A stretch of DNA of 44,554 bases from Catajapyx aquilonaris (GCA_000934665.2 JYFJ02003250.1:1-44554), one strand, 5' to 3'; shown: positions 8,229-44,554, counted from the first letter of the stretch. Made by a program: numbers and translations. The notes: a model not told the origin generated them from the sequence alone.

Positions 8229-8482
8229 TAATCACATCGGGCATGTCAATTGCGTCATCCTTACAGGAACAAAAGCGAAAACGAGGGAATCAAATGCCCG
8301 TTTCTTATTTTGTATCAACACTAAAACACAAGAAGTGCATAAAATATATAATTATAGTTTACTATGACGGTCACATGTAGAAACGGCCAATCCCACATCG
8401 CAAGAACAAAATTAATGAGCCAGTTCATTAGCTCATGAGAAGCGCTTGGTTCTCCAATAACGCACAATCGCAGTTCTTCCGG

Positions 8483-18726: not shown

Positions 18727-18773
<47 letters not shown>

Positions 18774-21700: not shown

Positions 21701-24700
21701 GAAACACCTGGTTTTGTTTTCCAATAGAAAAATGTATCAGTCGTGCTTGCAGTAATAGTAAACTCGCTATTTCAGACATACGTACAGTAGGCCTAATACA
21801 TAAAATGACCTAACACACTGTATCCTTATGAACATGTATTGAGTTCCATTACACGAATGAGTAAATTGTGGAGGTAGACTTTCCAGTTTCCACAAAGATG
21901 TAAATAAATAATACCGTACCTTATAACTCACTATAACTGTAACTTGCCCAATCAAAAAAATACCAATAGGCCTACTTACCATAATATTTAACCTGATTGT
22001 AAGTAAGAGTTAGCATAATGTGCTTTTAAACAGCAAGTAATGTAGTTATTTTAACCCTGTAACTATTATTCAAGTCGTCTCATATTACTTGCCCTAAGTC
22101 ATAATTATTTGGCCACCCCCAAAGAAATGGAGTGGTGGGGTTATACACAGGATGTGATAAAAAGTTTCAATTAAGATTATCTGGACTTTAGAATGGATTA
22201 TTATGGATAGTAACAATTGAGCTAGGAGGATATCAAATTGGAAGTTAATTTGACAGTTAACAACTGAAATAAATACGATTATACCTTGGACAGTGAATTT
22301 CTGCGGGGTCTGGTAAAAATTGCTGCCACTCTGTTTATTTCTTACTTAGCGGGATGTAAATGTTGATAATGAACCTCAGGGGCCACACAAACCCAAAAAC
22401 AGTATTGACATTAATTACAAAAAATCTACCACAGAATTAGAAAACATTTATCATGGCTTGCAGATATGAAATTTTCTGTGCATTTTTGAATTAAGGAATA
22501 TTTAAAGCCATTTTACTTTAATTGAATTGAAATTTTTTATCATAGCACATTGGACTGAGTTCTAGATAAACAATACTATCACATTTTAATTTATTAATAA
22601 ATAACACCGTTAAATGTGGTACAGCCAAGAGTATCAATTTCTGAAAAAATCCACTTGCGATAAATACTGTTTAATTCCGTGGTAGATTTTTTTGCAATTA
22701 ATTTCAATACAGTTTTTGTGTTTGTGAGGCCCCTGAGGTTCATTATAAACATTTACATCCCGCTAAGTAAGAAATAAACATAGTGGCAGCAATTTTTACC
22801 AGACCCCACAGAAATTCACTGTCCAAGGTATAATCGTATTTATTTCAGTTGTTAACTGTCAAATGAACTTCAAATTTGGTATCCTCCTAGCTCAATTGTT
22901 ACTATTCATAATTATCCATTCTAAAGTCCAGATAATCGTAATGGAAACTTTTTATCACATCCTGTGTATAACCCCACCACTCCATTTCTTTGGGGGTGGC
23001 CAAATAATTATGACTTAGGGCATATTAGACCTATAAATTAAATTGCGAGCTGCATGAGACAACATGCGTATTTTACGCCCTTTTATGAATATGAAACTAA
23101 TTTTACAATTTAAATATTACTATCTCTTTATAAACTGAGGGCCACTCACGTTAACTGAGTAGACGGACTCAGGGTTTAGGTTTGTGATAGTTGCGCACCA
23201 CAAGTCGTCCCACAGCCCACATGGTTCAGGAGCACTTTGGGCGCGAGTATAGCAAGGTGGGTCTTGGCATGTTGCGTCCTGTACCTGATGGGCATACACA
23301 TCATATCGTGCAATCTCTCCACACGGAGGCCAAGGAAGGGCCCATCTGACAGATATTTGACTTCCGTCTTTGGAATACGCCATCAGGTTCCTCACTGGAG
23401 GGGGAGCTGAAATATTTGACATTTACAATACTTCATAATTTCTTTCTTTTTAATATTTCCTACTCTGTACATAGCTGAATTGGCTCTTAGAATAATTATT
23501 ATATTCCAACCGTTGCATTGCTGATAGCTAAGCAAGGAGGAGGGAAAATTGCTGCAATGATATTATTGCAGGCTATGTATTGAACTGGATTCTGGTTACA
23601 CTGCTGAGGTTTGTTTATAATATTATGCAATCCTCCACGAGTCTGATAATTATTATGTTACAGTTGCCGTGTTAATAGATCCATCATGTGGAACTCTAGG
23701 GGGAAAAATAATTACCGAATCACCACCACATGGCGCTACCCTTAAATGGAAGACATCTTTATACCTGACGGAGGCAGTTTAACGCTGATGTTGAGACTTT
23801 TAGCCATGTTTCCTTCATTGTCATTGTTGACCACCCACACGGACAAGACGTATGTAGTGAACGGAATCACATCTTTTTGTAAAAAGGAGATGGCGTTGGT
23901 CACTGATGTTGCATTGGTGCTGGAAAGCCAAGGATCCGGGCTCACTAGTCGCACCCTGTACCGAATCGGACCATTGCGAAAGCGACAGTCTGGTTCTTTC
24001 CAGTTGAATGTTAAAGTCTTCAATGTTTCTGAGTATTCAGTGGGCTGTTCATGCTCAGGCTCAGGTTCAACGTCCGGCACTGAAAAAGTGACAAATATGG
24101 TGGAATCAAACAATATTATTGCAAGAGTTTGGGTTGAAAATGTTTATAAGAACATTGTTACCGCCTGGTAGAGTGCTGCCATAGACAATTTTCGATGGCC
24201 CTGTGGTTCTTTCAGTCGCTGCTGAAACTTCAACTTTGTAGTAAGAATACGGATGCAAAGGTTGCAATACGTAGCTTCTAGCAGTGATATCTTTTGGTAA
24301 CCATGCTACAGGAGAAGATTCTATGCAAGCGAGGTGTTTGACGAACTGAAAGGATTTTAACAAGTATCTATAAACTTCCTTATGTTATATATTGTTGTGA
24401 GACATGCTGAGATATGATTTGGTAATTCAAGATTTCAGGTGCTCTCTGGTTGGTACCATGCTAAGATTGGTAACTTCTCTTAACCGCTTTCTTGATTGGT
24501 TAGTGCGGTAAGCCAAATACGGTAGTAACAGACAAACAACACCTGCAATCTTGGATTAAATACCTCACACTCACAGTCAGAGCTGTGGTAAAAATATCAT
24601 CATACCTCAACTGTTAGAGTATAGTGCTCGATAGGACCATCAGGCATTGCCGGTTCTTCCCATGATATCAAAAGAGATGTATTAGATTGTGACGTCACTT

Positions 24701-25722
24701 TCAATTGTGTTACTTTTCCGGTACCTACAAGCGATGATGTAAAATGTTACTTATTATCGTGTCATGGTCGTTGCATGGATTGAAGGCAGGGCAAATTGAT
24801 GCGCAAAATAGACAGACATGAAGCAATCCAAGGAGGCATAGTCTACTCACTTATTTGGCACAGAGGCTGCATGTATCCATCCTGGCAGCCTTGTCTACAC
24901 TCCCCGGTAGAGGCGTCGCAGGCGTTACCACTAACGCATTTGCCGCATATTTTTCGGCAGTTACTTCCGTAATAACCACTGGTGCACGCTAATAAAAATA
25001 AAGTGATGTTATAGTGGCACACGCCGAGATGTGTCTCATAATGACTTGATAACTTTGGTGGTTTAGACACATGAATAATATACCTGTATTCAAAGATATG
25101 AAGTTTAGTGCATCCTATGGATGCATAGCCTTTTGCTTCTCACCTCTTTTGCACGTAGGTAGCCGATACCCATCTTGGCATCCGTATGCACACTCCCCGG
25201 TAGAGGTGTCGCAGGCGTAACCATTAAAGCATCTGCCACATGTATGCTGGCATTTCTTTCCATAATAACCTCCCATGCACTCTAATAAAGGTAAAGTGTG
25301 TGAGTAGCGCGTTCCGAGCAGGAATGGCCCATACCAGGCCTTGCTTGACGGTTAGTAGCCATAATTAATTATAGGAATGCAATGCGTCTTAAAATTTATA
25401 CACATGCACGGATGCGCTGAAGTGGGTAGCCTAGTGGGCTGCATGAAAAAATCCAACCATGGAGTTAATGCCGACGAATGAATGGGTACTCATTCTCACC
25501 TAGGCAACGAGGAGGTTGGTATCCCTCTTGGCAGCCTGAGAAACAGTTCCCAGTTACGTAGTTGCAGTAGGTACCAGGAAAGCATTTGCCACAATCTTTT
25601 TAAGAAATTGGTTCAACAACAATCACCTGGACACATTAGGGTGCATATGGGTTAAGTTGTACACTCTTACCATAGGTAGCTACGACTGGTATAGAGAGCA
25701 GAAAGAGCATTGCCGCCAACAT
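16583..25722 (-). CDS. Receptor-type protein tyrosine phosphatase, paralogue A (signal peptide, 3 laminin/MEGF-type EGF units, 4 FN3 plus membrane-proximal domain, TM, PTP D1, pseudo-PTP D2)
   Basis: Signal peptide [17 protein letters not shown] (ATG 25722); EGF exons 25500-25595, 25144-25281, 24851-24988; FN3 exons about 20800-24725; [23 protein letters not shown] (about 20000-20065). D1 motifs [54 protein letters not shown]2 motifs FINAV, FIATQLP, HFWQMV, LVCYDGASACG. Ends FETYNNFE*. Confidence 0.92.
18682..19022 (+). mobile_element. Possible Helentron-associated (DINE-1/HINE-like) non-autonomous element in an RPTP-A intron
   Basis: Layout of TTATAC start with a short inverted repeat (ACTTTTTC/GAAAAAAGT), then a (TCTG)n microsatellite and a 3' stem-loop TGCGA...TCGCA. 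Architecture resemblance only; boundaries approximate. Confidence 0.3.
18727..18774. repeat. (TCTG)12 microsatellite
   Basis: Directly visible perfect tetranucleotide array. Confidence 0.95.
21170..21241 (+). repeat. (GTT)n tract with a short upstream stem-loop; possible 5'-truncated non-LTR (RTE-like) 3' end
   Basis: ...GCTGACTACCCCTCATAGGGAAATGTCGGGAT followed by about 8 GTT units. The microsatellite is certain; the retroelement origin is inference. Confidence 0.45.
22090..23022. mobile_element. Fold-back non-autonomous DNA element, about 930 bp with about 360-bp inverted arms, in an RPTP-A intron
   Basis: TGCCCTAAGTCATAATTATTTGGCCACCCCCAAAGAAATGGAG... at 22090 is the reverse complement of ...CTCCATTTCTTTGGGGGTGGCCAAATAATTATGACTTAGGGCA ending at 23022. 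Arms align to about 22450/22660 around an AT-rich spacer; no ORF. Confidence 0.88.
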
Positions 25723-27950
25723 GCTTCCTTTGTGTGTGTTGACGCCCAGTATGCACTGAGTGACACTATATGGTATCACTCGTCCTAACAAGAAAAAATA
25801 CTGCAAGAACCAGTGGTGAAGGATAGTGCGCAAGTATTTTAGCTCGCCATAGCTTACGTAATGCAGTGAAAATGTCAAACAAGATTCAACTTCCTAGCAG
25901 AGTGGGGAAAGGTTTACCGGAAGGGGTGTATTATCAGAGTTGGTTATGTGGTGAGATTAACGCAGGGAACAGTAAGCTTTCCTTATATTCTATCAGCCGA
26001 ATGTTTTATATTCAGACATTCTGAGCTGCCTTGAATTATTGCCACATTAAAATTCACAGTGACGCAATTGGTTTGATATTTTGCCTAAATTATTTCAGCT
26101 TCCTGGTTAAAATCAAAACTGTATGTAGCAAGTGTAGACTATATAGCAGGCGTGTAGGCCTATACAGATTTAGCTCTCATATATTGCGGCGTGTTGGCTA
26201 TTGATAATTTGGTACTATTTGCAGGAATTTTTCAGAAGGGGACTCAAGCAAATTACAATCAGTCCACAATGAACACTTTAGGGTCTGATAAAAACCGTGC
26301 AGCTGCCATCAGATATACTAGCTTGGGCCATACAATGGATATTGAAACAATGAGAAGGTTAGGCCAGTACTCGTATTTATGGTGCAAAAATTCGAAATAT
26401 GATAGTAAGATAGATCACGGCAGATTTTTCACATGCTTATTCTAGCATTTGTCAGGTTTTGGAATAACTTAATTGTATTTGCCGTGCTTTGATGATACAG
26501 GGCACATATTTCATTTACACGGTATATTGACCTGTAATGCGTAGCTGAGACTTGTCACAAGTCTCTGCTATTACAGGTCAATATACAATAATGTTAGTTT
26601 CAAAGTTTGAAAAAATTATTATTGTATATGTTAGGCTCGTATCTGACGGGATATTGAGAGCAGAAATATGTATTATTTTGTTCTATACTAAAGCCTCATG
26701 CAGACCTCTAACCAGTTTGTCAAAAATTTATATAAATTTATATAAATAAAAAAATCAATTTTCTTGTAATGCTTATCTGCTGAATAAATTCCAGTGTATC
26801 GAGAGATAAAGAGTAATCTAGGTGAATCAAATAGGCTATAAGACAATAATATTGTCGAGAAGGTGAGTGGATGTAACTACTGTTCTTCCATATAACATTT
26901 ACCATTTCAGACAGTGTTACAATCGACCCCGCCCTCTGTTACAACCTCACCCCTATATTGGGGTCGGTTGTATAACACTCTATCTTGCCTCGGAAAAATA
27001 TTTATAAATCTACTAATTTTTTCATCTTAAGATTTTATCATGTTAATTTTACAAAGAGGAATGTTACCTTATTTTCAGCATGTCCTAGCTAGAAACTTTG
27101 CCTTAATGCATATGTAAATGAAATTAAAAATCAAGACTAAAGTATTACAACCGACCCCGATCTCCCTTATAATACTAGTATGTATATAATTTTTTGCGGC
27201 AAATGATATGAAATATTGGATGTCAAAGGTGATCGAATAATTTCGACTGCAACAAATCCAATGCACCATTACAGGTAACTTTTTTCCAGGCATTGACATT
27301 CCCAGAGGCTAACATCTTGGGTGACACATCTTGAGGCGCATATACGGGCACACATTGGGACACTCAAAATTATTTGCCTGTTTTTACAATGGGAATTTTT
27401 CGGGCTATGACCGATCTCTTTTGTATGAAGGAAGAATTGACGGTATTTTGAAGACATAATTATTTATCTGGGTGCGTCTGGCATATGCGAAAAAAGCACC
27501 TTCATCGTATGATTGAAGTCACTCATTGCAAGGTTGTGGCTAATGGCAATGTAAATAATGTTCACTGACCACTGATACTCGTAGAGTTGTTAACAAAAAT
27601 AAATATTCCAAAAAGGATTTGGAACAGGAGATGAATGTTGCAGGTCTTTAAAAAATAGCCCTACATGTTTTTAATTACTCCGCATTTTATTTATTAATTC
27701 CTTGATACAAAAAGGAAGGAATACATCCAAAAATGGGCAAGAAAGTAAAATACTGTAGCATGTATAATGTTACGCAGCACAATAAGAAGCGGTTGAGATT
27801 CAGTAATGCAGGCAAATATACTATATGAGAACTATCCAGTTCGGTTTGTTACAATCTGTAATGTCTGGTCACACACCAAATTCGATATGCCACTGCACAC
27901 TTGCAAAATAATTGCCACATTTTAAAACATTACATAATATGATTAGTCTA

Positions 27951-30900
27951 TCACTGAAAATTGGCGTAGGTCTCGAAAGCTTCCAGATAGTTCACAGCAC
28001 AGTCGTAGCTATAGTTGTACTGCTCCTGTAGGAAAAGAATCAGTCGCATTTCAAACCACGTAATGTTCACAATACATTAAAGGCAACTGCTGCTGAGACT
28101 ACTCACTTCATTGGGGATAAAATGAGAGTGACTTTGTCGAATACTCTTCGCGGCCAAATAGACATCGACCTGCTGTTCCAACTTCATTTTGTCGAACACA
28201 AAAGACACTCCGGCAAAAAGACCGCATGCTGTGGCCCCATCGCTGCAACAAGTTTATAACGAAACGTTATTCATGTACTGCACTAGATTATGCATTACCA
28301 ATATTTCATAGGAATGCTACTGACTAGCACACAAGAGTGATTGGTCCTCCACTTGCAGGGTGCACTCTCTCCAGGACACAGTACAAACCAAGGAGACTCG
28401 GATTTACAGGCAAGTTTTGCTTCTGAGGCCAGTTCAGAAGGTGAAGCACATTAACCAGGCGAGGCTTTTCATTCGGCTGGAAAAATAAGCAATGAAAGAC
28501 ATGCCCACATTTTAAATTCATAGTTAGTGTTACCCTGTCTTGGTTCCTCATGAGTATCTTCATGTGAACAATATTGTCGTCTGATGACTCCTCCCTGAGT
28601 TCCAGTCTGACATACCCGCGTGTGATGGCTGCTTCGGTGGGCCAGAAGATCGGTGTATCCTATAAGTCACAAGTGTCCAATTAGCAACATTGTCCCTCAC
28701 TATTGACAAGCCGCCTTCACCTGATTGTTTGGATCCGGTTCCTGCAAGACCACAACAGTGTGTGACTTTTGCTCGTAGACCATCTGCCAGAAGTGGCTCT
28801 GAGTATGAGGCAAAGGCAACTGGGTGGCAATGAAGCGGTCCTTGTGCTGGTATCCGTGGACAGTGACAGCGTTGATGAAGTTGGCTGCAGGACCGCTCTC
28901 CATAGAAGAGATGAACACTCGGCTATGGGGTCCAGGGTAGATCTCAGGGACTCGGACCCGTTCGAGCTCCTCCGTTTCTAACCTTTGTTCCAGAGGCAGC
29001 TTCTGCTTCTCCTCTTCCAGCTTCAAGAACTGGTTGTCGATTTGCGTCCGACCTGTGTTCTCAGATATTTCTCTCAAGGCAGGCAGTCGGTGGTTAAGGT
29101 CGTCGCAAGGGATGCACCAGTTCTCTCCGAAGAGTATCTCCACCAGGGCAATGTGCACGAATTTGTATTGCTCCTGCATAACAGCGCAGTTTGATTAACG
29201 AATAAAACCAGTGAGATTTGAACTCACGACTCACGTTATTGTCCACCATGTTCGGTCTTTGTGACCTGATGATTCCCAAGTACTTGAAGCAATCCACGGC
29301 CGCTTCTGCTGCAGCCATTTTAAGCATCGAGTGCAGGAGGACGATGGTGCCAGTGCGACCAACTCCAGCGCTGAAACGAGCATTTTTTTTTAAATTTAAA
29401 AAGGTTGTAATGAATATCACCATTGTTGTCACTGTTGTTACCTGCAATGAACGAGTATTGGTCCTAGTCCTGGAGGAAGCAAGATGAGCCTTTTGGCGAA
29501 GGATGCGACCGTTTGAGGGTACATGGGCACTCCATGATCAGGCCACGAAGTAAAATGTGCGTGGGTAAGCTAAAAAAAAACATCATTTTGATATTTGAGT
29601 GTGCAATAAATTTCAAGAGAAATACTATTTGTGGGCTCAACCTCTCTGTTTTCTCCGTTCTTCTGCACCGTAAAGGTGCGGAATGTGTAGTCAGCCAAAA
29701 GCAGGGTTGTTTTGAAGCAGCTCACGGTCACGTCACCGTATGTTTCGGTTTTGTTTTGATCAGGCCAGTATTTTTCACATTTAGGCTACAAAACATTGTG
29801 AAGGAGAATGATATTAGGCTCATTATTCGATACACTGTTGTACTTTTATACCTTTCCACTTTCAATCAGATTTGTCACCATGACAATGAGGTTCACTTTT
29901 TCTTGCCAAATCATCCTCCAAAAGTCGTTGATGGTGGTAGATTTCGGCCCCTGAGTTGCAATGTAAGCTTTTGGCATATTGTATCCCTGGAAAAATAAAA
30001 CCATTTTATATTTTAAAACTTCGAACACTGGAACACTGATTGATAGGCTTTTATTACATCCAGATAGTTTGCGTTGATATAATCGGAGAAGTTGTTTCCC
30101 GGAAGCGGCTTCAAAACTACACGACTGTGATCATCTGCAGAGAAAAAAATGAACAGGTAATACCTGAAAGTGATTTTCGTACACCACGATACGTACATGC
30201 TACCAAGTTTCCGTATCGGTTCTTCGTTTTATTTTGCGGCAATTTCCCGTACTCCCAAGGTTTGGTTTGGCCCCTCGGGAATATCTAAAAGCAAGCGTTG
30301 TTTTAAGTTCCACAATACACTCCCCCATCAACACAGAATGTCACCTCATGCTGCCTTTGCAATTCTCCAGAGTCAATTCCGTCCTCCACGTACTTCTCCA
30401 GATCAATCAATTTTACTCGATATGAGCACGATTCCAGGGGAGGCATGGCTGCCATATCATTCGTCTCCACTCGATGATCTTGAATCACTTGGGGAAGCTG
30501 CTCATCATCTTCCACAAAGTTGTCTGAATAAATTCGTGTCATTAGATACATATCGCAGACTTTAATCACTGACAACTACATGCATTGTCGTACCTTCTGA
30601 ACGAGTGCGATCTAGGTTGTTGTAGGCGGGAAGAGCGATCTTTTCTCGTGATATTGACCTGGCAGCGTGTTTTTTTCTGCACACGTGAATAATAACATGG
30701 GGATGAATCACACATAATGTCATTGATCTTGGTATAAACTCATCCTATTACCGGTAAAGAAGAACTGATCCAACTGCAATGGTGACTAGCAAAATCATGA
30801 TGACAATTCCTGCGATTAGACCAGAGTCGGGTCCTCCTCCTCCTCTTTCTGATGGCGGTGATGGCGTCGTTGGAGGGGGTTCCTTTCCTAATGGCACGAA

Positions 30901-33900
30901 AGACATTCTGCCTAAGTATGCAGGATGACTCTGGAAATTTCTTCAAGGAGATAGACTAGCCTACTACCGTAGGTGAAATATGTTACAAATACATTCTATC
31001 GGGTTACAATTTTCCATCATTTGAAAGTGTTTTCTTCTGCAGTCCCCCGTTCGATTGTGACGTTCGAAGTGCACAGGTTCAAATAACACGCACTACTGTG
31101 TAAAGATTTTATCAAGCATAAGTACGTATTGTTGAAGATAGTTCGGATTTTGTGACTCCTATGAAGTTATTCAACTGTTATTAATAATCTACATGATTCT
31201 GAGAAAATTATTCTGTCAGTTATCAAATGTATTACTTGGTAATGTTAGGTCATATTGAATCTTCTGTCCAAGGCCTGCAGACATGCAATTAATTTCTGAT
31301 TGGGAATGGCCCGTTGGCACAGTTAGCCTCGAACGTCAGTTATATGGTAGACTACAGGCCTACCCATTTTTGGGTCAACGCAACCTATAATATTAGCAGC
31401 TAACACTTTTGATAACCACTGAAAGTAACAATTAGCACCTTAGTCCAAAAATAGCTAAATGAAGCCGACATTCTAAGTGGAACACCCTCTATATGTTGTA
31501 CGTCATATAAGTGTACCAGAGTAACGCAGGGTCTTTGGTTTTAAAATATTTGTCAATAATTATATAGAGTTATAAACAAATTGGTTTCATTGCATGTACC
31601 AAACCGTATTGCTCTCACCCAAGAAAAAGTCCCCATCTGTAAAACTGCCTGTATGGCGCACCTCTCCAGCAAATTCGCTGATGCAAACCAGACCAAACTT
31701 GTAGTACACTTGTTCCAGCAGAGGCATGTTGGGGTATTGCCCGTGACTTCCTCTCGATTGCTCACCATTTCCCACTTCCACCCTCCGAGCCTCTCCTAGG
31801 TTGTCCTAGACACATGTAAAGAGAAACACTCGGGCATTATTGCGTTATGATGATTACATTGAAATACATGCCATTATTCTGCACTCACCTGGGAAATCTC
31901 CATGGCTACGTAAAAGCCAGGCTCTTTGATGATTTCCTTGAATGTGTCTGCCAGCCTTGAATCGGGAGATAATCCGGAATCATCGCCTTCACGTCCTAAT
32001 TTTGGAATCACGATGACGAAGCATGAGCTGAAGAAAATGGAAGGAAGCTGATTGGAATTAATCTGCCCTGGGTTTGGTTGCAGGTCCATTTGGTTGCAGG
32101 GAGACAAATGGCCAGAAAATGTCTTTAACCTGTTTGCATGCAAATCCAGTGTCACTGGGAACACCGTCAGGTTGACAGAGTTGTTTTGAGCTGACCCATA
32201 GTCGATCTGAAGGGTTTGAGAGATGATTGGTTCTGTGGGTGGGGTGCTGATGTCCCTCGTTATGGGTGTCCCTCTTCCAGCTCCAGTGTTCGCAGATATT
32301 TCTATGCGGTATGTTGTGGAAGATTCCAAACCCACGATCTGAGTGCAAATAAAAATAATGCAACAGGTAATTATTATTAAGAGTAAGTTATATCTTGTTT
32401 TTGCATTATTTTTCCAATAGGCCCTAACTGAAAGTGCCAGCATGAAATAATATTTTAATCCCCAGAAAATTCATGCTCTATACTGAATGTTTTAGAATGA
32501 TTTTGAAAATTATTAGGGTGAATTCTTGGCACCTCAAGATTTCTGGATATAGCGGTGTCTTTTGGTCTTATTGTCTCCTATATCAGGGGCGTATAGCTTT
32601 TGCCGGTTGTCTGACGCATCATTGTCGTTGCACTCACCTCTTCGCGCCAACACAAATTAGATAAATAAGGCCTTATCGCCCGCAGTTGTCGTGTTTGAAT
32701 AGTGTTATATGGTAGAATTAAGGTATAGGACGATGGAATAGGACAGCCACCAGTTATCGGTTTGGGTATACTGCACATTTCATTAGTTTTGTTATTACTT
32801 ATCAGTAAATTATAAACACACTGCTTGCATGGAAGAATCTAAATTCATAAAAATATTACTAGGTGGACGAAATATTGGATCCTCAAACAATGCTGGTGCA
32901 TTGTATCAAATATTTATTAGAATAGTGATGAATAAAATAAGATAAGTCGGAATGCCGCATAGGGGAATACGCTATACGCCCCAATCGTTCTCATTCTCCG
33001 TGTGACTGAGATGTGACGAATATCCCCAGATGCTAATTGAGCCCCTCCTCTCCCCCACCCATAACCATGAGATTGAGTCACCAGATCAATTATTACACTG
33101 GTCCAAATATCAAAAAATGGTGAAAAGTGCCATACCATTTGAGCATGCCATCTAAAAGACACAACTCGTTTAAAGCTCCAGGGAGAGAACATGAGGCTGG
33201 ATAAAGTTACTTAACTTTGTTCCCTTGTCGAAATGGGATGTCATCCAGTAACGTGGTATGCAGAATTGCAATTTGGGTGTTGGTTAAAAAGGTACGACCA
33301 CTACGACGCAATAATTTTTCGCTTCATACCCCTGGCATTGGGGGAAGACGCCGTATGTGGACTGGGGGAAGCAAGATGCCAATATTGGTTATTAACGTAG
33401 GGACAGAATGCACTGTCTTGATGAAGGCAACAAACGGAATAATAAAATTTAAAGAATTAGCTGCAAGAGCTGTTTGAGGATCACGATTTCATAAACTGCC
33501 GAACAAGACCGAAGCAGTGGTGGCGGAGGGGATATGGTATTCGACTGCTAATAGGGAGGTCCTGGGTTCGAATCCCGGTGCCGGCAACTCTAACCGTGGT
33601 TTTCTGTGGTTTCCCACGGTTCCTCCATGAGAATTCCGGAGTTGTTTCCTAAACTAATAAGCCACAGCCGCCTCCTTCCTTTCCTTTCCTATCCCATAAA
33701 GCGCAGTAAAAACGAAACGAAGAGTTCCAGTCAAAAAATATCCCCCCTAAAGAGCCGCCGGCTGATAACGGGGTATGAATTATTAATTATTATTATCATT
33801 ATTAACTGCCGAACAAGGCCTATGCAACATGGCCACAACTGGATTAAGTTATAACTCAACTCATCAAAATTTCTGGCAAAGAAGAAGCAAAAGACGTTCA

Positions 33901-36483
33901 TTCAATCACCTGTGAACTGCCTGACTGCGAAAAAAATAAGAAACCACATCAGAATGCATCTTTCTCCAGTAGTTCCTCTATTGCGGCGTCTTGCCCAATG
34001 GCATGGGGGAAGACGCCGCATTTGCAGAGTGTTCTTAAAAATTGATAAATAACACTTTCCTTTTCCTTTATTTACTTTTTATGGTGTAGGCCTGTAGCTA
34101 AAGTTTCGTAGAAGATATCCCTCTATTGGTGGTATTGAGATTGATTCATTAGATTTGCTTTTGCACCAGCGTAAGTGCTTAACTGCGGCGTCTACTCCCG
34201 ACTTACCTTATCGTATTTTCGTTTTTCGAAGCCAACTGGGCTTACCTCGTAATCGTACGTCCTCTTAGTTTCTGTGGCTGGAATTTCTTCAAAACGAGGC
34301 TCTCCATATCGGCTGACTCTTAGTATCGTGACGATGAATTTGTCCATGATTCCGTTAAGAATGTCCGGGTGTCCCACACTCAGACTCACCAGGTTTGTTG
34401 TTTTAGCGGTGATGTTTAAAGATGAGGGTGGCTCCGGAACTGCGAAGATTTACACCATTACATTTAGAGTTAGTGTCAGGGGGAAATGCATTACATTTTG
34501 TCACTTACTTTCTTCCCTCGTCGTAACGGAAACAGTTTCTGCCATCTGCCCATTATCACTTACGTTAAAATTCCTCGCCGTTATCTGGGAATAGGTAATA
34601 TATAGTTTACTCAAGGTGAAAATGTCACACGCTATGAATAAAACTAACGGTGCATAATAACCTAGCAGTAAATTTTCACCAGTTACTATTCCCGTGCAAA
34701 AAATTCCATGCCAAAACACTGTTTCTCACTCTAAAAATGGAAAGCAGCTAAGATTTTGTCCATCACAGCCAGCTACTCTGCTGTGTAATCTACCAGAACC
34801 GAAGGGAAAATCACTTAGTAAGTCAGTTTTACACGGACACCTAAGTCCGCCATAAATCTGTCCTAAGTCCGTGACATACATTCAGGCACATAGTGATTTC
34901 CCCCTCGACAAGAACCCTTCATTTTGATCGGCACCGTTAAACAGTCCTTCATTGTGTAATGAGACTGCTGTGGTGTGTTTGTCAATGGTGCACGAGTAGA
35001 AGCAAGTGACAACTCACCTGAACTTTATAGTTCACATTGTCCCTCAGTTCCTGGATGGTGGAGCAAATGAGATCATCCCACAAGGCACAAGGTTCAGGCG
35101 GGGTGTACTTCTGGTTATTGCAATAGCTTCCTGCGCAATTATATTGTCTCTGGGCGTTGAGGTCATACCCTTCCAGTTCCCCTTGTGGAGGCCAAGGATG
35201 TGCCCATCGGACAGATATTTGACTCCTGCTCTTGGAGTACACTGTCAGGTTGCGCACTGCTGGTGGGGCTGAAAAGAAGTGGTCGGATGTTGAAGGTAAC
35301 AGTTGGAATTGCTTGCTCATTTTGCATGCAATCATTTTCATCTGACCTGATGGGGGTAGTCTCTTCACCTTGATTTCCAGCTCATTTCCTTCACGCCCTT
35401 CCTTTCCGGCGTTGACTAGAAACACTGTAAGAGTGTAAGTAGTATACGGTATCACATTACTTGCTACCCACTGAATGTCGGTTATGTCTGTGGGCTCCTT
35501 CACTTCATTGATCCAAGGATCTGGGCTCGTCAGTTGCACCCTGTAGTGAATCGGTCCATTCCAGAGGCGACAATCTGGAGCCTTCCACCTGAATGTCAGC
35601 GTCTTCCATCGCGCGGCGTATTGGGGCTCCTTGCTGTCAGGCAGAGGCGCTGATTCGGGCACTAGGTCAAAGGTGATGGGGAATAAGATATATGTTTTTA
35701 TTCATATCCGTCGTCAAATCCTGCTGCCGATGCCAAAGAAGCGAGATCTGAATTGTAGCTTACCCCCTAGTAGAGTGTTGAAATATTTTTCTGTTCCATT
35801 TCCTTCTTCTACAGTGTAGGCTGCAACTACAAATCCGTACAGAGAATAAGGACGCAAATCTGACAGAGTATAACTGGTCTCCTCGGTTGTGGCAGTAGAT
35901 TTGGTCATCTCCTTTGGTGGAACTACTTGTGGGTTGCAGGAGTTACGTGCATAAAGCTAAAAAATTATTATCGAAAGAAATATTGAGAAACATGACAAAG
36001 TAAAATCACCACTCTATTTACGTACAGCCGTACGAGACGTACGGCTGTGTATGAATTTCTCACCCAATAAGTGACAGCGTAGTGTCGAACAAGTCCGTTT
36101 GGCATGTCGGGTGGATCCCAAGACGTTTCAAGAGACACATTGGTTCGCGACGTAGCTCTAAGGTTCTGCACTGGTCCAGGAGCTGAGAAGCAAAGATGCG
36201 TTGTTGTAATGCGATTACAATAATGTTGATGCTCAAAATATTTTAGTAAGGAGCATACCGGCTTCTTTAGTGGTTGCCTTTGTAGGTTCAGATGGACTAG
36301 TGAAGGTGCTGTGATCGACAATTCCTCTGACTCGTATTTCATATTCAGTGAATGGACTCAATCCTACGATCAAAGCTGGAGATTCTGGCGAAGCAACACT
36401 ACCGCTGAATCTCGTCATCACAGATATGGCAGATATATTGTATCCCGATATTCGACAGTCGTCGTCTTCTGGCGCAGAATTCT

Positions 36484-36546
<63 letters not shown>

Positions 36547-39500
36547 ACAATGCTGTGATGATGGGATAGTGGTGATGTTAGATGTTGGATGATGATGATA
36601 CGAAAAGGTTTTTAATATGGTAAATGAAATTAATTTATTGCATACCACCCAGGTGACAGTTATGGATTGCGAAGTTACGTCGTCTTCCTTGACTAACACC
36701 CCAATTGGTGGATTTGGAACTGAAGGAGAAAGCAATGGTATTTCGTATATCCCTAAATATCGTCAATCATTATTCTTACAAGGAATCAGAGTCACTCACT
36801 GGTACAAGAAGTCTTGTATTCGGCTTGAGGTATTCGATCACCGTCGTACATATTCCCATCGCTTGTTCTCAATACGACACGCACAAAGTACTCTGTGTCT
36901 GATCTTAACCCAGACAGTTCGTATCGGGTGCGATTGTCGTAACTAGCGATTTTTTGCCATTTTCTTTCCATCCATGTGGATGTCGCGTCGTCGACTCGCT
37001 GAAAACAATAGGGGAAAAGTATGCATATCGGTCCACTCAAAGGGTCCATGTCACTGTCGTCACTTGAGATGATCAAGTGCGGCATATACCGACCTTGAAC
37101 TGCACTCGGAATTGTGTTGGGAATCCTTCCCCTTCGAAATGTGCAGGAACGATCGGAATGGACAACTCCAGAGACCGTGACCCTGCTTCAGATGCGAGTG
37201 AAGGCGGAATGTTCAAGTAGGGATAAGCTGCAGTTGACAACAGAATGAAAGTGCAGTAGTTAATAGTCAACAAGCCACATCAGCTGTACGAGAATAACCA
37301 TCACTCGCAATAATACAGTAATAGCTGCTCACTCAATTTGCAGACTGGAAGAACGTATCCGGGCTGGCATCCTCCTGGACAGTTTCCGGTGTAAATGTCA
37401 CAAAATCCGGAGCCCGAGCAGTTCCCGCACTTCTGTTGGCAGCCTGGACCGTAGTTTCCATTTCGACACACTTGCAACAGAAGGAGAGACATGGACTGGT
37501 ACATTGTGCTGGGTTGCGTAGATGTAGCAGATAGTAGATGTTACAAGAAACTACGAGTAGTAGTGTGCACGATAGAACTACGTGTCTGTATACTTACATG
37601 CCTGGCATTCCTCATACTTATATTGCGTCCAGTATCCCGATGCGCAGGAACACAGTGTTGGAGGCGACGCTCGACACAGCGTGTAACCCTTGCAGTCATT
37701 ACCTGTGCAGGTGCCTTTGCAGTCCTTCCCAAACAAGCTGCGTCCACACCCTGTAAGGCACAATATTGTTATTCTGGAACTGAAATATTTGATATTGAAA
37801 TTTGTCCGCACGAAAACTGTGAAGTCAAAGTGAAAAGTTGCTGCTTCAAAAATATTGTTGTTATGAATGTAATAAACTATCTTAAGAGTATCTGCTCACC
37901 AAATTGGCAACGATTTCCATTGAAACCGGGGGGACAGAGACACACACCGTCACCACATGACCCTCCGCTCAGGCACTCGCGGTCACACTTGGCTGGAAAA
38001 TATAATTATATACGGTAACTTATGCCTACTGTGTATAAAGAGCTACAAGTAGGGCTGGATTGGTATATACCACAGGCCAGGGATTTGCTTACAAGGCAAG
38101 TTATTGTTATTGGTCAGCAGAAATCGAGGCAGAAATATAACCTGACAAGTGGTAAGAATAATTACTCTGAAAAACCAGAATCGATTATGCAGCGGGAGCC
38201 GAAGGTGCTTATAAGGATTCACTTTTTAAAAATCATCACCACTAACTGTAAGTGCTACGTGCTAAAGCCTATTTAATTGACGTCCCATTCAGAAGTTACT
38301 AGGCTTCTGCTGATCATTAACAAAGGGGGCAACCACTTCCCGAATAGGTGTACCAGTACATTGGTTCTTAGAACTGTGTGTGGCGGAACCATGTTTCCAT
38401 GTGGATATTTCTGGTTCTATGTCGGTTCCACCAGCTTCCAGAAAATGCATGCATCCTAGTGGTCCCACATTGTTCCCACAAAACCATGTTCCTTATGAAT
38501 CCCATAATAGTTCAATTAGGAGCCACGTACACTACGGAATAGTTACATTCCGGTTCCACACTGACCTGTACAGTAGGGCGGCTCGAAAAACACTTTTTTT
38601 CGAAAGTTGTAGTTCGCTAGTGAAAAAAAGTTGTGTTGGGCGATCCTTTTAACAGGTAAAAAATCTGAGTCATGTGGGTTAATATCCTACGGCTCCGCCA
38701 GGGGCGTAAGTGACGCAACTTCCGGTTTTTAGTTTTTTGGTGTGTGAGTACACTTACCCGGCCTAAACATGAAAAGTTGTGGCCCCCCGGGGGTGAAATG
38801 TCGTTATTTTCGCGATATGTTGCACCGTTGACGAGATATTGACCAAAACCCCAGGTTCAAAAAAACACCGTTCTGCAAAAAAAAAACACTCTCTTCGCTA
38901 TTTTGAAAACCTTTATGTGCTTTTTATGGATTTTGGGGTGCTGAATCCGAATCCGGCAACAGATTTGCTCCATCACGTACAGCTTTTGAGATATATCGTT
39001 TTAAAACTTTGGACGGTTTACTAGGGGTCTTTCCGAATCAAGTGGGCCTAAATGTTGTTAGACCGCCTCGGATCTTTGTGAAAATAATCACAGATGTACT
39101 AATCTATTCCTTAACGCTTCCTATAAAAATTCAGCCATATTGCTCAATACTATGATGAGGGGAAAAATCGCAAACATCTGGAAATGGCTGAGAATGAGGC
39201 CTTTTTTGGAGTTTTTTTTTCGGTTAGTGCAAGTGGTCAAACCCCAATGAACATATATATCAAAAGAAAGGGAAGCACCAGGACAATGCGCCTATGGAAT
39301 TAGTATTCCTCTAAAATGTAAAAAAATATTTTTATAGCATTTCATTGGTCACTTGCACAGTCACATGCCCAAGAATATATTGTGACCTCAACATGTTCTG
39401 CAGAAAAATTCTATTTTGGATAAAGGTAGATGCACTATATAGATTAAGGTGTGCTGAATCCAGATCTGAAGTCAGAATGGCTCTATCACGTACATATTTT

Positions 39501-42500
39501 GAGAAAACGCAAATTTTGGGAGATACGACACTTAAATCAAGAATTGTTGTTTTTCACAGTTGTCGCAGTGTATATTCAGGACTTCGTAAGGGTTTTCCCC
39601 GCAGGACTGCCCGAACCAGTGATATACGTTTTTGTATAAGTGTAAAAGGTGCGAGAGGGAGTCGGCCAAGGACAGTCGATTATAATTGTTGAGGTCACAA
39701 TATATTCTTGGGCATGTGACTGAGCAAGTGACAAATGAAATGCTATAAAAATTTATTTTTACATTTTAGAGGAATACTAATTCCATAGGCGCATTGTCCT
39801 GGTGTTTCCCTTTCTTTTGATATATATGTTCATTGGGGTTTGACCACTTGCACTAACAGAAAAAAAATCTCCAAAAAAGGCATAATTCTCAGCCATTTCC
39901 AGATGTTTGCGATTTTTCCCCTCATCATAGTATTGAGCAATATGACTGAATTTGTATAGGAAGCGTTAAGGAATAGATGAGTACATCTGTGATTATTTTC
40001 ACCAAGATCCAAGGCGGTCTAGCAACATTTAGGCCCACTTGATTCAGAAAGACCCCTAGTAAACCGTCCAAAGTTTTAAAACGATATATCTCAAAAACTG
40101 TACGTGATAGAGAAAATCTGTTGCCGGATTCGGATTCAGCACCCCAAAATACATAAAAAGCACATAAAAGGTTTCAAATCATCGAAAGAGAGTGTTTTTT
40201 TGCAGAACGGTGTAATTTTTGAACCTGGGGTTTTGGTCAATATCTCGTCAACGGTGCAAGATATCGCGAAAATAACGACATTTCACCCAGAAAGGGCCAC
40301 AACCTTTCATGTTTAGGCCGGGTAAGTGTACTCGCACACCAAAAAACTAAAAACCGGAAGTTGCGTCACTTACGCCCCTGGCGGAGCCGTAGGATATTAA
40401 CCCACATGACTCAGATTTTTTACCTGTTAAAAGGATCGCCCAACACAACTTTTTTTCACTAGCGAACTACAAGTTTCGAAAAAAAGTGTTTTTCGAGCCG
40501 CCCTACTGTACAGTGTACACCGTACAGAGAGTGGTAACCTTATTGATTTCTATATTGGTACTGAAACTACTTGTATATAGTTGATCCNTTGATAAGTAGT
40601 CTAATGACGTAACATTGTGAGTGTTTTTACATTCAGATCAAGCGTCGCATTTTGTATAGGTATAAAGGTAAGTGTAGCTTCGATAATGTGCTACACAATC
40701 ATGTGATCTTTGAGACGGAAGGCTTGAATAATTGTGGACTGCAGTAGTGTATAATGCAATGGAAAACTTACCAGGCTCTTTCACTACACTTCTGAAGACT
40801 GGTCGGCAGTAAACGTTGTTGGTATTCTGTGGATCTCCAATGGGCTGGAACTTGCGCTCTGTCGAGTCACACGTGTCTGGGAATTATTACAAGTTAGTAT
40901 TGTAATTTTTGAGGTGTGAATGTTTGGCCTTGTCATTACAGACGATGGTTGACAAGGCAAATGAAACACACCAAAAACTGCGGGAACTGAAAGGAGACAG
41001 TTGATATTGTGGTTTCAGCATTTTGATGCTGAGGTGTACCGACAACTGAAAGTGCAATATTTAAGAAAGTGCATTTTTCCAGGAAACAATTTGCATCATG
41101 AACGTCACCATAAATACTTTAGTTCCATATATTCCATTGCAAAATATACTCATTAGTCATTACGAAACCACACGAGATTCAGAGAAGCCAATATGGCAAA
41201 AAATATAATCCTATTTAGGTTTCCTTTTTTTTGCATTTATAAACAGGACCTCCTGAGGCATCAGGCCACGGTGCATTTCAGTATAGGCATACTATACAAT
41301 GGAATGCACTGGCCCAGATCCATGGCCCATGGGGTTTAACATGAAGACGTTAGGGATTGTTTACCGCAGCAATCAGTTTCAAAATACTGTAGGAATAAAC
41401 TTTTCACTATCTAAAATAAGATAACCCTGTAATGCCCCTTGGGTCATATCTGGCACACCATTTAGTGCAATTTGGCACTTACAAGAAATATAAAAATTGC
41501 AAAAGTTGCAAAAATTGCACTAAATGGTGTGCCAGATATGACCCAGTGGGCATTACTTAGATTAGTGGGCATTACAGGGTTAAATTCACTTGACTGGATT
41601 TTATTTAAACTGGTTGATGGGGCCTTGAACAATACATAACACTTTCCTTAAAAAATTAGGAAATTTGTAGCACACCATCCTGTATTTAGATATTTAATAA
41701 TCCCTAAATATTTTGCATCAATTATATTCAAAAGACTTAATATCGTGCCATGTTGATCAGAATCTTATCAAGGTTTACGCCAGCTGCACCCTTTGTTATA
41801 CCTTTGTTTTGGCCACATGACCTGACATCGTCAATTACGACAATACTGCTGGATGGAGCTTGTTGGGGTATCACTCCTTCGAACTTAACGTAATATCTGC
41901 CACGTGGTAATTCCGCAACTTTGTGCTTCCACTCCAATTCCTGGATTAAAGAAATGAGACAATATACAAATGCATGTTTCACTGGAAATGCCAATTTGTG
42001 CTTCTACGGAAGTCCAGAAATGAGTTTCGCGTAGGCCTATTAATATATTTAGGCTGATATTTCACTTACAGTTAGTCGATGTTTGCAACACATCTATCAG
42101 TAGTACCGGTATGTTTTCTGGAATAATGAGGTTTGACATTGTCTAGCCAGGACCTGCTCGTTTCCGACTACGGTACTCTTGTACATGAAGGGTACCTTTA
42201 TCCGGATATTTTTTTACCCTATAGTTATAATATAAATGCACGAAACTTGTTTTTGGACTTGAACCCCAGTACGCCAGATTGGAAAAAGTGCGCTCTCACC
42301 TGATCCCCATCCGAGGCTATTCTTTCGAGCGGAACGTAATGTCCATCTGGTGGAGCTGTGTAGATGTTCAGTTCAACTCCAGAGTGAGGTGATAGCAAGT
42401 ACCAAAAACTAATGAATGTAGACGATTCTCCTTCGCTTTTAATGTAAGCGTGAATGCCTCCAACAATTCTGTCATTAGTCGTTCCGCCTTGACTTTTTCC

Positions 42501-43833
42501 CAAGTAGAAGAACTTCTCTGAAAATTAATGTTGTACTTGTACTGTATGATGCATTCTACTAAAACATGCCTATGACATCACTTTTGATTTGGACTCCTTC
42601 CGGATAAGTAACTCACTAGTGCTCAGTTTCCATGAGAGTGGAGTTGTGCCATAATAACCCAACCCAAATGAGGAGTACTTCACATCAATGGTCTCTCTGC
42701 GCTCAACATATTTAAATATTTCCTGGTAAGGAGCAAGTGATCCCAGTCGTACTGTTTTCTCTTGATATGAGAGCCAGAAGTGTCTCCATTCATTACTGTT
42801 CAGGAATGTTCCCTGCAGAGAAAATAACAGCATATTAATTTAATTGTATTAAGGATAGGCTACTCTTAACTGAAGGATTAAGGATTATATTGTCATCAAG
42901 TCAGAAATGAGTTGAATTTTAAGGAGGCGGAATGCTAGGGCGGAATGGAGCTTCGGAAACATACTCTCCCACGGATGGAAGACCTGGTCTGTCCCCCCTG
43001 GGTCATCTCTGCTGGCTCCGTCTCGGGGCGGGATATCCCACGGCCTTTCGAGAGAGCATCAAGCTTGCTCTCTCGAAAGGTCGTGGGATATCCACTCCTC
43101 TAACCACCCGGGGAGTAAAGCCACAAAATGACCAGGACAGGCATTGCACAATGCACAATTGCACATGCTTCTTGCACAGCCTCTCCCTGTCACCATACCC
43201 TTCCCACGGCCCGGATACACATCTCAAGGAGGTTATCATTGCGATGATGGTGGTGGTATAGTGGTGGTGATTTCCACCCCATTAGAAATATGAAAATATC
43301 CGTTTATTATTATTAATTATTATTATTACACTCTGCACTCACCGCTTTGGCAGCATGCCAGTTTTGCTTCGGGTTCGTGTACGAATAACTTCCTCCACGT
43401 CGCCTTCTCAGAGCGGCCCTTGCATTGTCCCATCCCCCAATGATGATCCAGTAGTGGTCGTCACTCTCGTCTGGTCTCTCCTCAGCAGCAAGAAATACGA
43501 AAGCATCATCAGTCCCTTTCACAGAGAAGGATATGTTGTAGGCGTTTGTTGGAACAGACTCGGTTACTCTATTTCCTTGCCTAATGGTTGTCCCATTGAT
43601 TCCTGGAACGCAAGTAGTTTTTAGGCTAAATCGTCTTATTTTTTTACTGCAATGTTTGTATAATGACAGTAATGCAGCCATACGTTCCCATCTGACGTCA
43701 GTGATCGGGGGTACATCCACTTCCCAGCTGGACACCACTCTCCATCCCCCTTCCAATGTCCACGATGACGATGGACAGCCGCCTTCCGTGTTCGGGTCAC
43801 ATAAGAGCGTTCCTTGGCTGCTTAATATTTCAC
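27951..43833 (-). CDS. Receptor-type protein tyrosine phosphatase, paralogue B (MAM-like domain with FAMeT-like insert, Tie-like EGF x3, 6 FN3 plus membrane-proximal domain, TM, PTP D1, pseudo-PTP D2); 5' end not resolved
   Basis: D1 motifs [47 protein letters not shown]2 LVCYDGATACG. Ends FETYANFQ* (stop 27951-27953). [23 protein letters not shown] (about 30755-30820); FN3 exons about 32150-37230; EGF exons 37333-37470, 37598-37750, 37900-37992; N-terminal exons 41802-41940, 42300-42517, 42617-42812, 43343-43602, 43684-43833. Exons between about 38000 and 41800 are uncertain and no signal-peptide exon was identified. Confidence 0.88.
32584..32984. mobile_element. Possible degenerate hAT-like MITE in an RPTP-B intron
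   Basis: CAGGGGCGTATAGC (32584-32597) with 12-bp inverted match GCTATACGCCCC (32971-32982). No TSD seen. Confidence 0.3.
33508..33803 (+). mobile_element. tRNA-derived SINE, copy 2 (antisense in an RPTP-B intron)
   Basis: A-box-like TGGCGGAGGGG (33521-33531), B box GGTTCGAATCC (33565-33575), (ATT)n tail, 14-bp TSD AACTGCCGAACAAG at 33494-33507 and 33804-33817. Same 5' start ACCGAAGCAGT as copy 1. Confidence 0.92.
36484..36546. repeat. (GTA)21 microsatellite abutting a splice acceptor of RPTP-B
   Basis: Perfect trinucleotide array; on the - strand it reads (TAC)n-AG|AATTCTGCG. Confidence 0.95.
38571..40508. mobile_element. 1.94-kb fold-back non-autonomous DNA transposon with about 820-bp inverted arms and TA TSD (Tc1/mariner/pogo-type ends)
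   Basis: TA|CAGTAGGGCGGCTCGAAAAACAC... and ...GTGTTTTTCGAGCCGCCCTACTG|TA. Arms 38571-39393 and 39687-40508 are near-identical reverse complements around a 293-bp spacer; no transposase ORF. Confidence 0.93.
41425..41579. mobile_element. piggyBac-type hairpin MITE in an RPTP-B intron
   Basis: ATAA|CCCTGTAATGCCC...GGGCATTACAGGG|TTAA. Long internal inverted repeat TGGGTCATATCTGGCACACCATTTAGTGCAATTT / AAATTGCACTAAATGGTGTGCCAGATATGACCCA, with a local duplication of AGTGGGCATTAC in the right arm. Confidence 0.75.
42987..43142. other. GC-rich extended hairpin (28-bp core stem, 7-nt loop) in an RPTP-B intron; structured RNA, pre-miRNA or repeat candidate
   Basis: GGATATCCCACGGCCTTTCGAGAGAGCA (43031-43058) pairs with TGCTCTCTCGAAAGGTCGTGGGATATCC (43066-43093) with one G-U. 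Flanks can also pair (CTCGGG/CCCGGG, TGGCT/AGCCA, GGTCAT/ATGACC, GTCTGTCC/GGACAGGC). Confidence 0.6.
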
Positions 43834-43976
43834 CTTTCGAGATATAAGTATGCATGATTGAGCACTCGAATTAATTACTGTGTTCTAGATGCAGCATTAT
43901 TTTTCAAAAAGTGCAATAAATAACAGACGCAAAGTAATGAGGAGTACAGTCACTGAAAGAAGTAAGGTATATAGAG

Positions 43977-44304: not shown

Positions 44305-44422
44305 ACCGGTACCGTATAATATACGGTACCGGTCAGTTATCAAAAAGTTACCCACGAATCTGGAACACCCTGTATATTATACAGGGTGTTCCAGATTCGT
44401 GGGTAACTTTTTGATAACTGAC
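44305..44422. repeat. Two adjacent perfect palindromes; the larger is made of back-to-back mariner-like termini
   Basis: 14-bp arms ACCGGTACCGTATA-A-TATACGGTACCGGT (44305-44333) and 45-bp perfect arms (44332-44376, 44378-44422) centred on ACACCCTGTATA-T-TATACAGGGTGT. Confidence 0.85.
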
Positions 44423-44554
44423 ATCGCCCGATAGCAGTTATTTTTAAAGCTTGTTGTGCCCCTAACCATGTGCTCCATTCTATAGCACTTGCTATATTCG
44501 ATCCCCAGTGGGTCGAAGTAGCAGTAGTTATAGAATGGGGCACATGGTTACGGG

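Follow-up and report, generated by a model that had tools for sequence, protein, structure and literature searches.

A FAMeT domain probably nested in a MAM-like domain at the tip of a predicted receptor tyrosine phosphatase of Catajapyx aquilonaris

Most receptor tyrosine phosphatases have no known ligands, and their classes are defined by the architecture of the ectodomain. The crustacean founding members of the FAMeT family (Methyltransf_FA, PF12248) were reported as farnesoic acid O-methyltransferases. Here, we analyze a window, that is, the whole 44,554-nucleotide (nt) stretch JYFJ02003250.1 of Catajapyx aquilonaris, in which five exons, labelled A to E in reading order, encode a module that we denote the head. 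We consider it probable, although well short of certain, that the head forms the membrane-distal tip of a single-pass receptor tyrosine phosphatase, with a FAMeT domain nested in a MAM-like jelly-roll, and that it probably binds a ligand.

The R2B receptor phosphatases (PTPRM, PTPRK, PTPRT and PTPRU) have, according to PMC2199947, an ectodomain in the order MAM, immunoglobulin (Ig), four fn3. For the MAM domain, PMC5104691 describes four conserved cysteines forming two intramolecular disulfides and, in neuropilin-1, an eight-stranded jelly-roll that comes after a variable N-terminal region made of a helix and a single strand. According to PMC10015273, the known FAMeT proteins are of small size and carry the domain in tandem or trailed by DM9; the same paper reports that no reliable in vitro demonstration of FAMeT activity was ever achieved and that a Drosophila mutant had no effect on hormone levels. 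The insert in our head resembles the proteins in which PF12248 occurs in tandem or with DM9/DUF3421 in being a near-complete PF12248 domain, but it is a single copy that appears to be nested inside a receptor domain. The predicted receptor is similar to the R2B phosphatases in its single-pass layout, fn3 repeats and tandem protein tyrosine phosphatase (PTP) domains; however, the window yielded no Ig, the head is followed by three EGF-like modules, the FAMeT sandwich would be nested in the tip, and the MAM profile PF00629 has no match. None of the solved MAM domains compared (8yt7, 5l73, meprin, enteropeptidase) has a domain inserted after the N-terminal arm. The exons in question, with coordinates counted over the whole window, are the following.

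43684-43833, minus strand: exon A, N-terminal flank of the putative outer MAM-like sandwich, with two cysteines, conserved tryptophans and an RWE motif
43603-43683, minus strand: intron A/B, 81 nt, phase 1, stop-free and in frame (spanned by the open reading frame (ORF) 43313-43870)
43343-43602, minus strand: exon B, first half of the Methyltransf_FA (FAMeT) domain
42617-42812, minus strand: exon C, second half of the FAMeT domain, which ends two residues before the exon end
42300-42517, minus strand: exon D, start of the C-terminal flank, with putative jelly-roll strands and an FWY motif, cysteine-free
41802-41940, minus strand: exon E, end of the C-terminal flank, with a terminal hydrophobic-DD-x-x-x-Cys motif, exiting in phase 1
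37900-37992, minus strand: EGF exon, phase 1-1, the first downstream exon able to accept exon E
37598-37750, minus strand: cysteine-rich EGF-like exon, phase 1-1
37333-37470, minus strand: cysteine-rich EGF-like exon, phase 1-1
27957-37187, minus strand: remainder of the predicted phosphatase gene (gene 2), with fn3 repeats, membrane region and two PTP domains (Pfam fn3 and Y_phosphatase matches, colinearity with the Chelonus insularis protein P0051)

The five head exons had been proposed in a first-pass annotation of this DNA, and all are present on the minus strand at these coordinates, with canonical GT-AG borders (donors GT at 43683-82, 43342-41, 42616-15, 42299-98 and 41801-00; acceptors AG at 43604-03, 42814-13, 42519-18 and 41942-41) and the translations that it quoted. 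Joined by coordinates with a script, exons A to E give a single open frame of 320 residues, and the flanks A+D+E alone give 168 residues. The phases are 1 into A, 1 at A/B, 0 at B/C, 1 at C/D, 0 at D/E and 1 out of E; the exon pair B+C is a symmetric 1-1 unit, as is the whole head, and the annotated phase-1 introns on both sides of the insert (A/B and C/D) were confirmed. Exon B starts one residue past the RWE motif that closes the N-terminal flank, and the PF12248 match ends two residues before the C/D border, so that the exon edges coincide with the domain edges. Because the insert is a symmetric 1-1 exon pair, it was most likely gained by exon shuffling. When intron A/B is spliced out, the RWE motif and the first FAMeT strand are separated by 31 residues, equal to the spacing in a bee homologue; judging from the sequence, retention of this intron is possible. 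At the 5' edge of exon A, the acceptor at 43833 is one candidate among others; its pyrimidine tract is weak, and further AGs occur a short way downstream. The first head cysteine is preceded by approximately 80 residues in the insect proteins vs 10 in exon A, and the signal peptide together with approximately 70 more N-terminal residues is expected upstream, past the end of the window.

The identity of the insert as FAMeT was borne out by the Pfam searches of the ORFs of exons B and C. The exon B ORF matches PF12248 over profile positions 20-70 of 140 with an expectation value (E) of 1.9e-9 and 37.9 bits (cut-off 24.2), and the exon C ORF matches positions 79-136 of 140, colinear with the exon B match, at E 0.011 and 15.9 bits. 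Coverage across B+C is thus near-complete (positions 20-136 of 140, the first 19 remaining unmatched), and the insert belongs to Methyltransf_FA by a match above the gathering score that, over both exons, covers most of the profile. Among the 60 representatives of the homologue search described below that were scanned with Pfam, PF12248 is accompanied by F5/8 type C (discoidin), ricin B, tectonin, DM9, a GH16-like stretch, kelch/galactose-oxidase and TIR, a domain company more in keeping with recognition than with catalysis.

A HMMER scan of 1.84 billion representatives with ORF 43313-43870 as the query yielded 62 proteins at E<=0.001, nearly all of which are covered in the FAMeT part only. 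Exon A is also matched by four of the 62, namely P0051 (Chelonus insularis, 1968 amino acids (aa)), P0055 (Cotesia congregata), P0059 (Eufriesea mexicana, a fragment) and P0058 (a fragment). The Pfam scans covered 60 of the 62 (P0001 and P0013 were left out) and found a phosphatase domain in a single protein, P0051 (XP_034938749.1), in which PF12248 is combined with fn3 and two Y_phosphatase domains; MAM was found in 0 of the 60. Word-seeded searches, which reach only proteins sharing exact words with the hymenopteran queries and say nothing about other groups, produced 6 proteins with a wasp head query and 43 proteins with a 7-sequence head profile. All but one of these 43 head homologues are named from Hymenoptera (bees, ants and braconid wasps). 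PF12248 and PF00102 are both listed in 29 of the 43, and PF00102 without PF12248 in one; the 13 homologues that have no listed phosphatase domain are ectodomain-only models or paralogues. The automatic names of the insect head proteins are receptor-type tyrosine-protein phosphatase T-like, mu, F, kappa-like, and uncharacterized. The top identity of these heads to the window protein is approximately 30-37%, and neither the HMMER scan nor the word-seeded searches found a close relative.

Some of the hymenopteran proteins, of 1200-1460 aa, have the same head and fn3 with no listed phosphatase domain (P0070, P0075-P0077, P0087, P0093, P0094, P0099 and P0110-P0112). These could be gene models cut short or paralogues that lack the phosphatase part; in P0070 and P0110-P0112, the insert has lost its PF12248 signal.

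The hymenopteran proteins that combine PF12248, fn3 and Y_phosphatase (P0051; P0072 of Hylaeus volcanicus) are the nearest counterparts of the window protein, although they carry no described function. A profile of 22 hymenopteran heads aligns colinearly with window-head residues 10-206 at E 7e-25, that is, from the first cysteine through FAMeT to the first strand after the insert, and the head is followed by EGF-like, fn3 and two PTP domains in the same order as in the window. The differences lie in the head identity of approximately 30-37%, in a C-terminal flank that is barely alignable, in the lack of the third conserved cysteine from the window head, and in the FWY motif of the window, which is absent from the insects. 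When parts of the hymenopteran profile were scored against the corresponding window pieces, with 1000 shuffles of each piece, the N-flank profile reached 25.8 bits against exon A and the insert profile 49.9 bits against exons B+C, scores attained by 0 of 1000 shuffles in both cases; the C-flank profile scored -0.3 bits against exons D+E, which 30 of 1000 shuffles reached. Moreover, the phmmer matches of exon A are almost exclusively hymenopteran head proteins. At the sequence level, the N-terminal flank and the insert are thus clearly homologous to the hymenopteran heads. The exon D and exon E ORFs have no Pfam match at E<=10, phmmer against the PDB sequences gave only chance-level haemagglutinin matches for exon D (E about 1) and none for exon E, and a search for exon D homologues among longer proteins gave 13 candidates, none of which scored. 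Peptides of exons D, E and A co-folded as three chains without alignments obtained a score of 0.02 and a mark of 0.34, values that weigh on neither side. Because the window lineage and Hymenoptera keep the same arrangement, the insertion would predate the split between them.

The fold of the head was examined on a bee homologue, the 327-residue P0072 head, and not on the window's own protein. AlphaFold with a 22-sequence alignment gave a predicted local distance difference test (pLDDT) score of 86.2 and a predicted template modelling (pTM) score of 0.83. This model superseded one from 7 sequences (pLDDT 65), in which the N-terminal flank was poorly defined and for which the Foldseek list held tandem-sandwich proteins only. 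The P0072 model was compared with 48,161 representative chains using VIA-align, and a second look at the top 943 chains of Foldseek agrees. The inner part (residues ~41-205) matches galectin carbohydrate-recognition domains and CBM66 at Z 11.5-12.3 (124-135 aligned residues, root-mean-square deviation (rmsd) 2.5-3.4), as well as legume-lectin-like and PRY-SPRY domains at Z 10.8-11.1. The matches of the outer part span residues 1-322 with 137-150 aligned residues and include the following.

7lyu: reelin repeat 8, Z 12.8
8yt7: MAM domain of scavenger receptor C, Z 12.4, 148 aligned, rmsd 2.8
4itc: gingipain K1 adhesin domain, Z 12.4
6a48: reelin N-terminal region, Z 12.3
2c9a: RPTPmu MAM-Ig, Z 11.5
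8zi4: enteropeptidase, residues 339-501, Z 11.5
5l73: neuropilin-1 MAM, Z 11.3, 150 aligned
2v5y: RPTPmu ectodomain, Z 11.2
7uab: meprin alpha, residues 263-430, Z 11.0
4l0p: EphA3 ligand-binding domain, Z 10.9
several CBM4, CBM22 and CBM61 entries: Z ~11 (11.0-11.2)

Because the C-terminal flank comprises only 118 residues (205-322) and 137-150 are aligned, the N-terminal flank must contribute to the outer domain; in the homologue model, both flanks form one beta-sandwich around the insert, which sits after the MAM-type N-terminal arm. The domain-in-domain arrangement claimed in the first-pass annotation is therefore supported in part: a PF12248 module lies between two flanks in the window, and in a confident model of the bee homologue these flanks make one sandwich. 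Under the arrangement that we propose for Catajapyx, some 45 N-terminal residues (exon A) and approximately 119 C-terminal residues (exons D+E) would pack into one MAM-like jelly-roll, and exons B+C would place a complete galectin-like FAMeT sandwich in the stretch that joins them. The predicted order of the receptor would be head, three EGF-like modules, fn3 repeats, membrane span, and the two PTP domains, D1 and D2.

Several observations weigh against this interpretation. PF00629 is unmatched at E<=10 on the window ORFs of exons A+B, C, D and E (scanned separately) and on all 7 hymenopteran heads scanned, 6 of which have PF12248 as the sole family; it is listed in none of the 43 head homologues. 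Two head profiles searched against the PDB sequences retrieved no MAM chain, the best match being a pentraxin-like stretch of ADGRG4 within the FAMeT part (E 0.15-0.21). The MAM scores of Z 11.0-12.4 tie with those of reelin repeats (12.8 and 12.3), the gingipain adhesin (12.4) and CBM4/22/61. The window head has three cysteines (two N-terminal and the last), and the third position is occupied by a non-cysteine, with the FWY motif there. With a score of only -0.3 bits, the similarity of D+E to the insects is marginal, such that homology of the C-terminal flank is indicated only by position, length (119 vs 118-123 residues) and the terminal motif; likewise, we infer the fold of the window's own exons D+E from the homologue model by position, length and motifs. 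Furthermore, all head splice junctions are predicted from genomic sequence, the first exon(s) and signal peptide of gene 2 are outside the window, and the type of ligand, the sensing of a glycan or another ligand and the mode of signalling are features that we infer.

The description of the flanks as MAM-like in the first-pass annotation accordingly stands only at the level of the fold of the homologue model, and there not uniquely, but without a MAM sequence-profile match anywhere. On the model, we regard the outer domain as MAM-like in fold and do not file it as a member of the MAM family, from which it would nevertheless descend if the proposed ancestry holds. The alternative is that the outer sandwich is not derived from MAM but is a generic jelly-roll of the reelin-subrepeat or CBM type, or a lineage-specific domain, with an N-terminal arm, and that its cysteine and aromatic likeness to MAM is convergent. 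The complete lack of MAM profile matches is compatible with such an origin, as are the scores of reelin repeat 8, gingipain K1, the reelin N-terminal region and CBM61/CBM4/CBM22 (11.0-11.2 for the last group), which match or beat those of MAM. Nevertheless, the best 21 of 48,161 chains include four entries with MAM or RPTPmu in the title, and the MAM entries align longest relative to the target length (148/189 and 150/174). In the bee model, the solved MAM domains share the jelly-roll and the N-terminal arm, with 139-150 residues superposed at rmsd 2.8-4.0, although at an identity of 10-14%, which is under profile detection. In the 22 hymenopteran heads, flank cysteines C7 and C15 are kept in at least 90%, and C231 and C319 in 22/22; these positions, two in the N-terminal flank, a third in a central strand and the fourth at the extreme end, fit the pattern of four cysteines and two disulfides given for MAM in PMC5104691. 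In addition, MAM heads one known class of receptor phosphatases. On balance, a non-MAM origin seems to us somewhat doubtful.

The link to R2B phosphatases implied in the first-pass annotation was not supported. Pfam scans found no Ig domain in the window ORFs, P0051 or the homologues, and EGF-like exons follow the head, an order other than that of the R2B ectodomain. As to the PTP subtype, PTPRS and LAR are the top-scoring matches of the bee homologue's tandem PTP region (E about 1e-122), and its D1, compared with D1-only PDB chains, scores highest with PTPRK, PTPRT and PTPRM (275.6, 258.1 and 245.3 bits), followed by PTPRB (229.6) and 2nv5 (226.8). The short PTP exons of the window do not discriminate the subtype and do not favour R2B; judged on these sequences, we do not file the phosphatase as R2B.

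The proposed function follows from the predicted architecture. A lectin-type fold together with the lectin-type companions of PF12248 makes a role in binding or recognition the likeliest; the two-sandwich tip would bind an extracellular ligand, probably a glycan or glycoprotein, and occupancy would alter the position or clustering of the receptor and, hence, which substrates the cytoplasmic PTP domains reach. The main functional rival is homophilic cell-cell adhesion in the style of RPTPmu, in which the head would act like the R2B MAM-Ig rather than as a sensor of glycans or soluble ligands. The resemblance of the outer fold to RPTPmu MAM-Ig (2c9a, Z 11.5) and the RPTPmu ectodomain (2v5y, Z 11.2) speaks for this possibility, as does the preference of the bee D1 for PTPRK, PTPRT and PTPRM over the next chains (226.8-229.6 bits). 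We consider it unlikely because neither the window nor the homologues show an Ig after the head, R2B is not favoured by the window's short PTP exons, and the galectin-like insert, along with the lectin-type companions elsewhere, points to heterophilic binding.

For the glycan or glycoprotein sensor that we prefer, the gene structure would allow an additional layer of regulation. Given that the insert is a 1-1 cassette, skipping of B+C would keep the frame and restore an uninterrupted MAM-like domain of 168 residues, and alternative splicing could thus switch between a lectin-bearing and a plain receptor. An even broader scenario, which we put forward tentatively and think improbable as a whole, is that of an old and hitherto undescribed class of receptor phosphatases with a MAM-like tip, nested lectin-like FAMeT, EGF-like modules, fn3 and two PTP domains, which originated before the split, was retained patchily, and is glycan-gated with a splice switch between lectin-bearing and plain forms.

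The window contains two tandem minus-strand receptor-phosphatase genes at ~17.3-25.9 kilobases (kb; gene 1) and ~28.0-37.9 kb (gene 2), each with cysteine-rich EGF-like exons, fn3 repeats and two PTP domains, and a single head copy detected with tblastn. In the same type of search, the P0051 matches run in colinear order from 43.8 kb until the C-terminus of the protein is reached at 28247-27957, with residues 425-509 landing at 37364-37477. The EGF exon 37900-37992 matches EGF_TEN (E 9.5e-6) and EGF (E 5.6e-4), both under the curated cut-offs, and the cysteine-rich exons 37598-37750 and 37333-37470 have no Pfam match. Because EGF-like, fn3 and tandem PTP exons of compatible phase lie downstream of the head, and the same order is found in the full-length hymenopteran proteins, the head is, as far as sequence can tell, most likely part of the downstream phosphatase gene, in agreement with the placement at the tip of a receptor phosphatase in the first-pass annotation.

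Alternatively, the head exons could make up a gene of their own upstream, coding for a small secreted FAMeT protein, in which exon E would read 22 more codons to a stop at 41737 and the phosphatase gene would begin nearer 38 kb. Indeed, ORF 41737-42003 runs beyond the exon E donor to this stop, exon E and the EGF exon are separated by 3.8 kb of repeat-rich DNA filled with inverted transposon-like repeats, and the tandem paralogue at 17-26 kb works headless with its own candidate signal peptide. However, exon E ends in a canonical donor of matching phase, the EGF exon that begins at 37992 opens in phase 1 with no upstream ATG or signal exon, and the full-length hymenopteran proteins show this order within a single chain. 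The 3.8 kb interval contains no convincing start, and a search of 37.9-44.55 kb for a signal-peptide exon of gene 2, whether paralogous to that of gene 1 or de novo, found none that convinces. A separate gene, therefore, strikes us as distinctly improbable. Finally, a catalytic extracellular methyltransferase, which only the family name favours, is extremely improbable given the galectin/CBM66-like sandwich (Z ~12, homologue model) in place of a SAM-binding (S-adenosylmethionine) fold and the doubts on activity, including the null hormone effect in the Drosophila mutant, in PMC10015273; the module here is predicted to have a lectin-type fold and not to be an enzyme.

The paralogue, gene 1 (17274-25893, minus strand), has the same EGF-like, fn3 and two-PTP body and no head module, with a candidate signal peptide in ORF 25636-25893 at ~25.7 kb. 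Genes 1 and 2 thus form a natural pair without and with the head inside one window.

Within the intron between the head and the EGF exon, 38617-39155 and 39925-40462 form an inverted, near-identical, ORF-bearing pair, with mirrored ORFs of 79 and 82 aa and more mirrored ORFs between them; this pair (38617-40462) is transposon-like and has no Pfam match. An intron of gene 1 harbours near-identical inverted ORFs of 83 aa at 22094-22345 (minus strand) and 22767-23018 (plus strand), the copy at 22094-22345 being without a Pfam match. An almost perfect palindrome of ~95 nt at 44340-44434, resembling a miniature inverted-repeat transposable element, lies 500 nt upstream of exon A, and fn3 exons of gene 2 are separated by a long trinucleotide microsatellite at ~36440-36560, which gives poly-Leu, poly-Ser, poly-Thr or poly-Tyr depending on the frame.

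Elsewhere in the window, 8000-14000 is a GC-rich island (55-60% GC vs 35-45% elsewhere) with very long open frames on both strands, among them ORF 12670-13818 (minus strand) with an ABC_tran match at E 6.7e-7; the island looks like an intron-poor ABC-transporter gene of unusual composition. At 834-5236 (plus strand), three similar tandem exons encode class I SAM-dependent methyltransferases (Methyltransf_11/25, E down to 3.8e-23), the fold of which is unrelated to FAMeT; their proximity to the head is probably coincidental.

The domain combination described here is already present in public predicted proteins under automatic names. The first-pass annotation had allowed that the architecture might be widely described: PF12248, fn3 and Y_phosphatase do occur together in 29 of 43 public predicted proteins, but no paper describing them was found. 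Specifically, within the open-access literature and bioRxiv, we found no paper that describes a FAMeT-bearing phosphatase, nothing relevant on MAM with a domain insertion and, judged by title, none on domain architecture among the Ptp36E papers listed. What appears to be new is that the flanks of FAMeT would form a MAM-like domain, as the homologue model suggests, that the insert is bounded by exons, and that the arrangement extends to an animal that, by the identity of 30-37%, is a distant relative of Hymenoptera.

The gain is, accordingly, interpretive, given that the proteins were already public, and no new kind of system is involved. If the proposed arrangement is true, a lectin-type sandwich nested in a MAM-like tip would represent a new ectodomain type of receptor phosphatases. 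The enigmatic FAMeT domain would gain a clear non-enzymatic setting, and the head would provide a natural example of an exon-shuffled domain insertion of symmetric phase in an extracellular protein.

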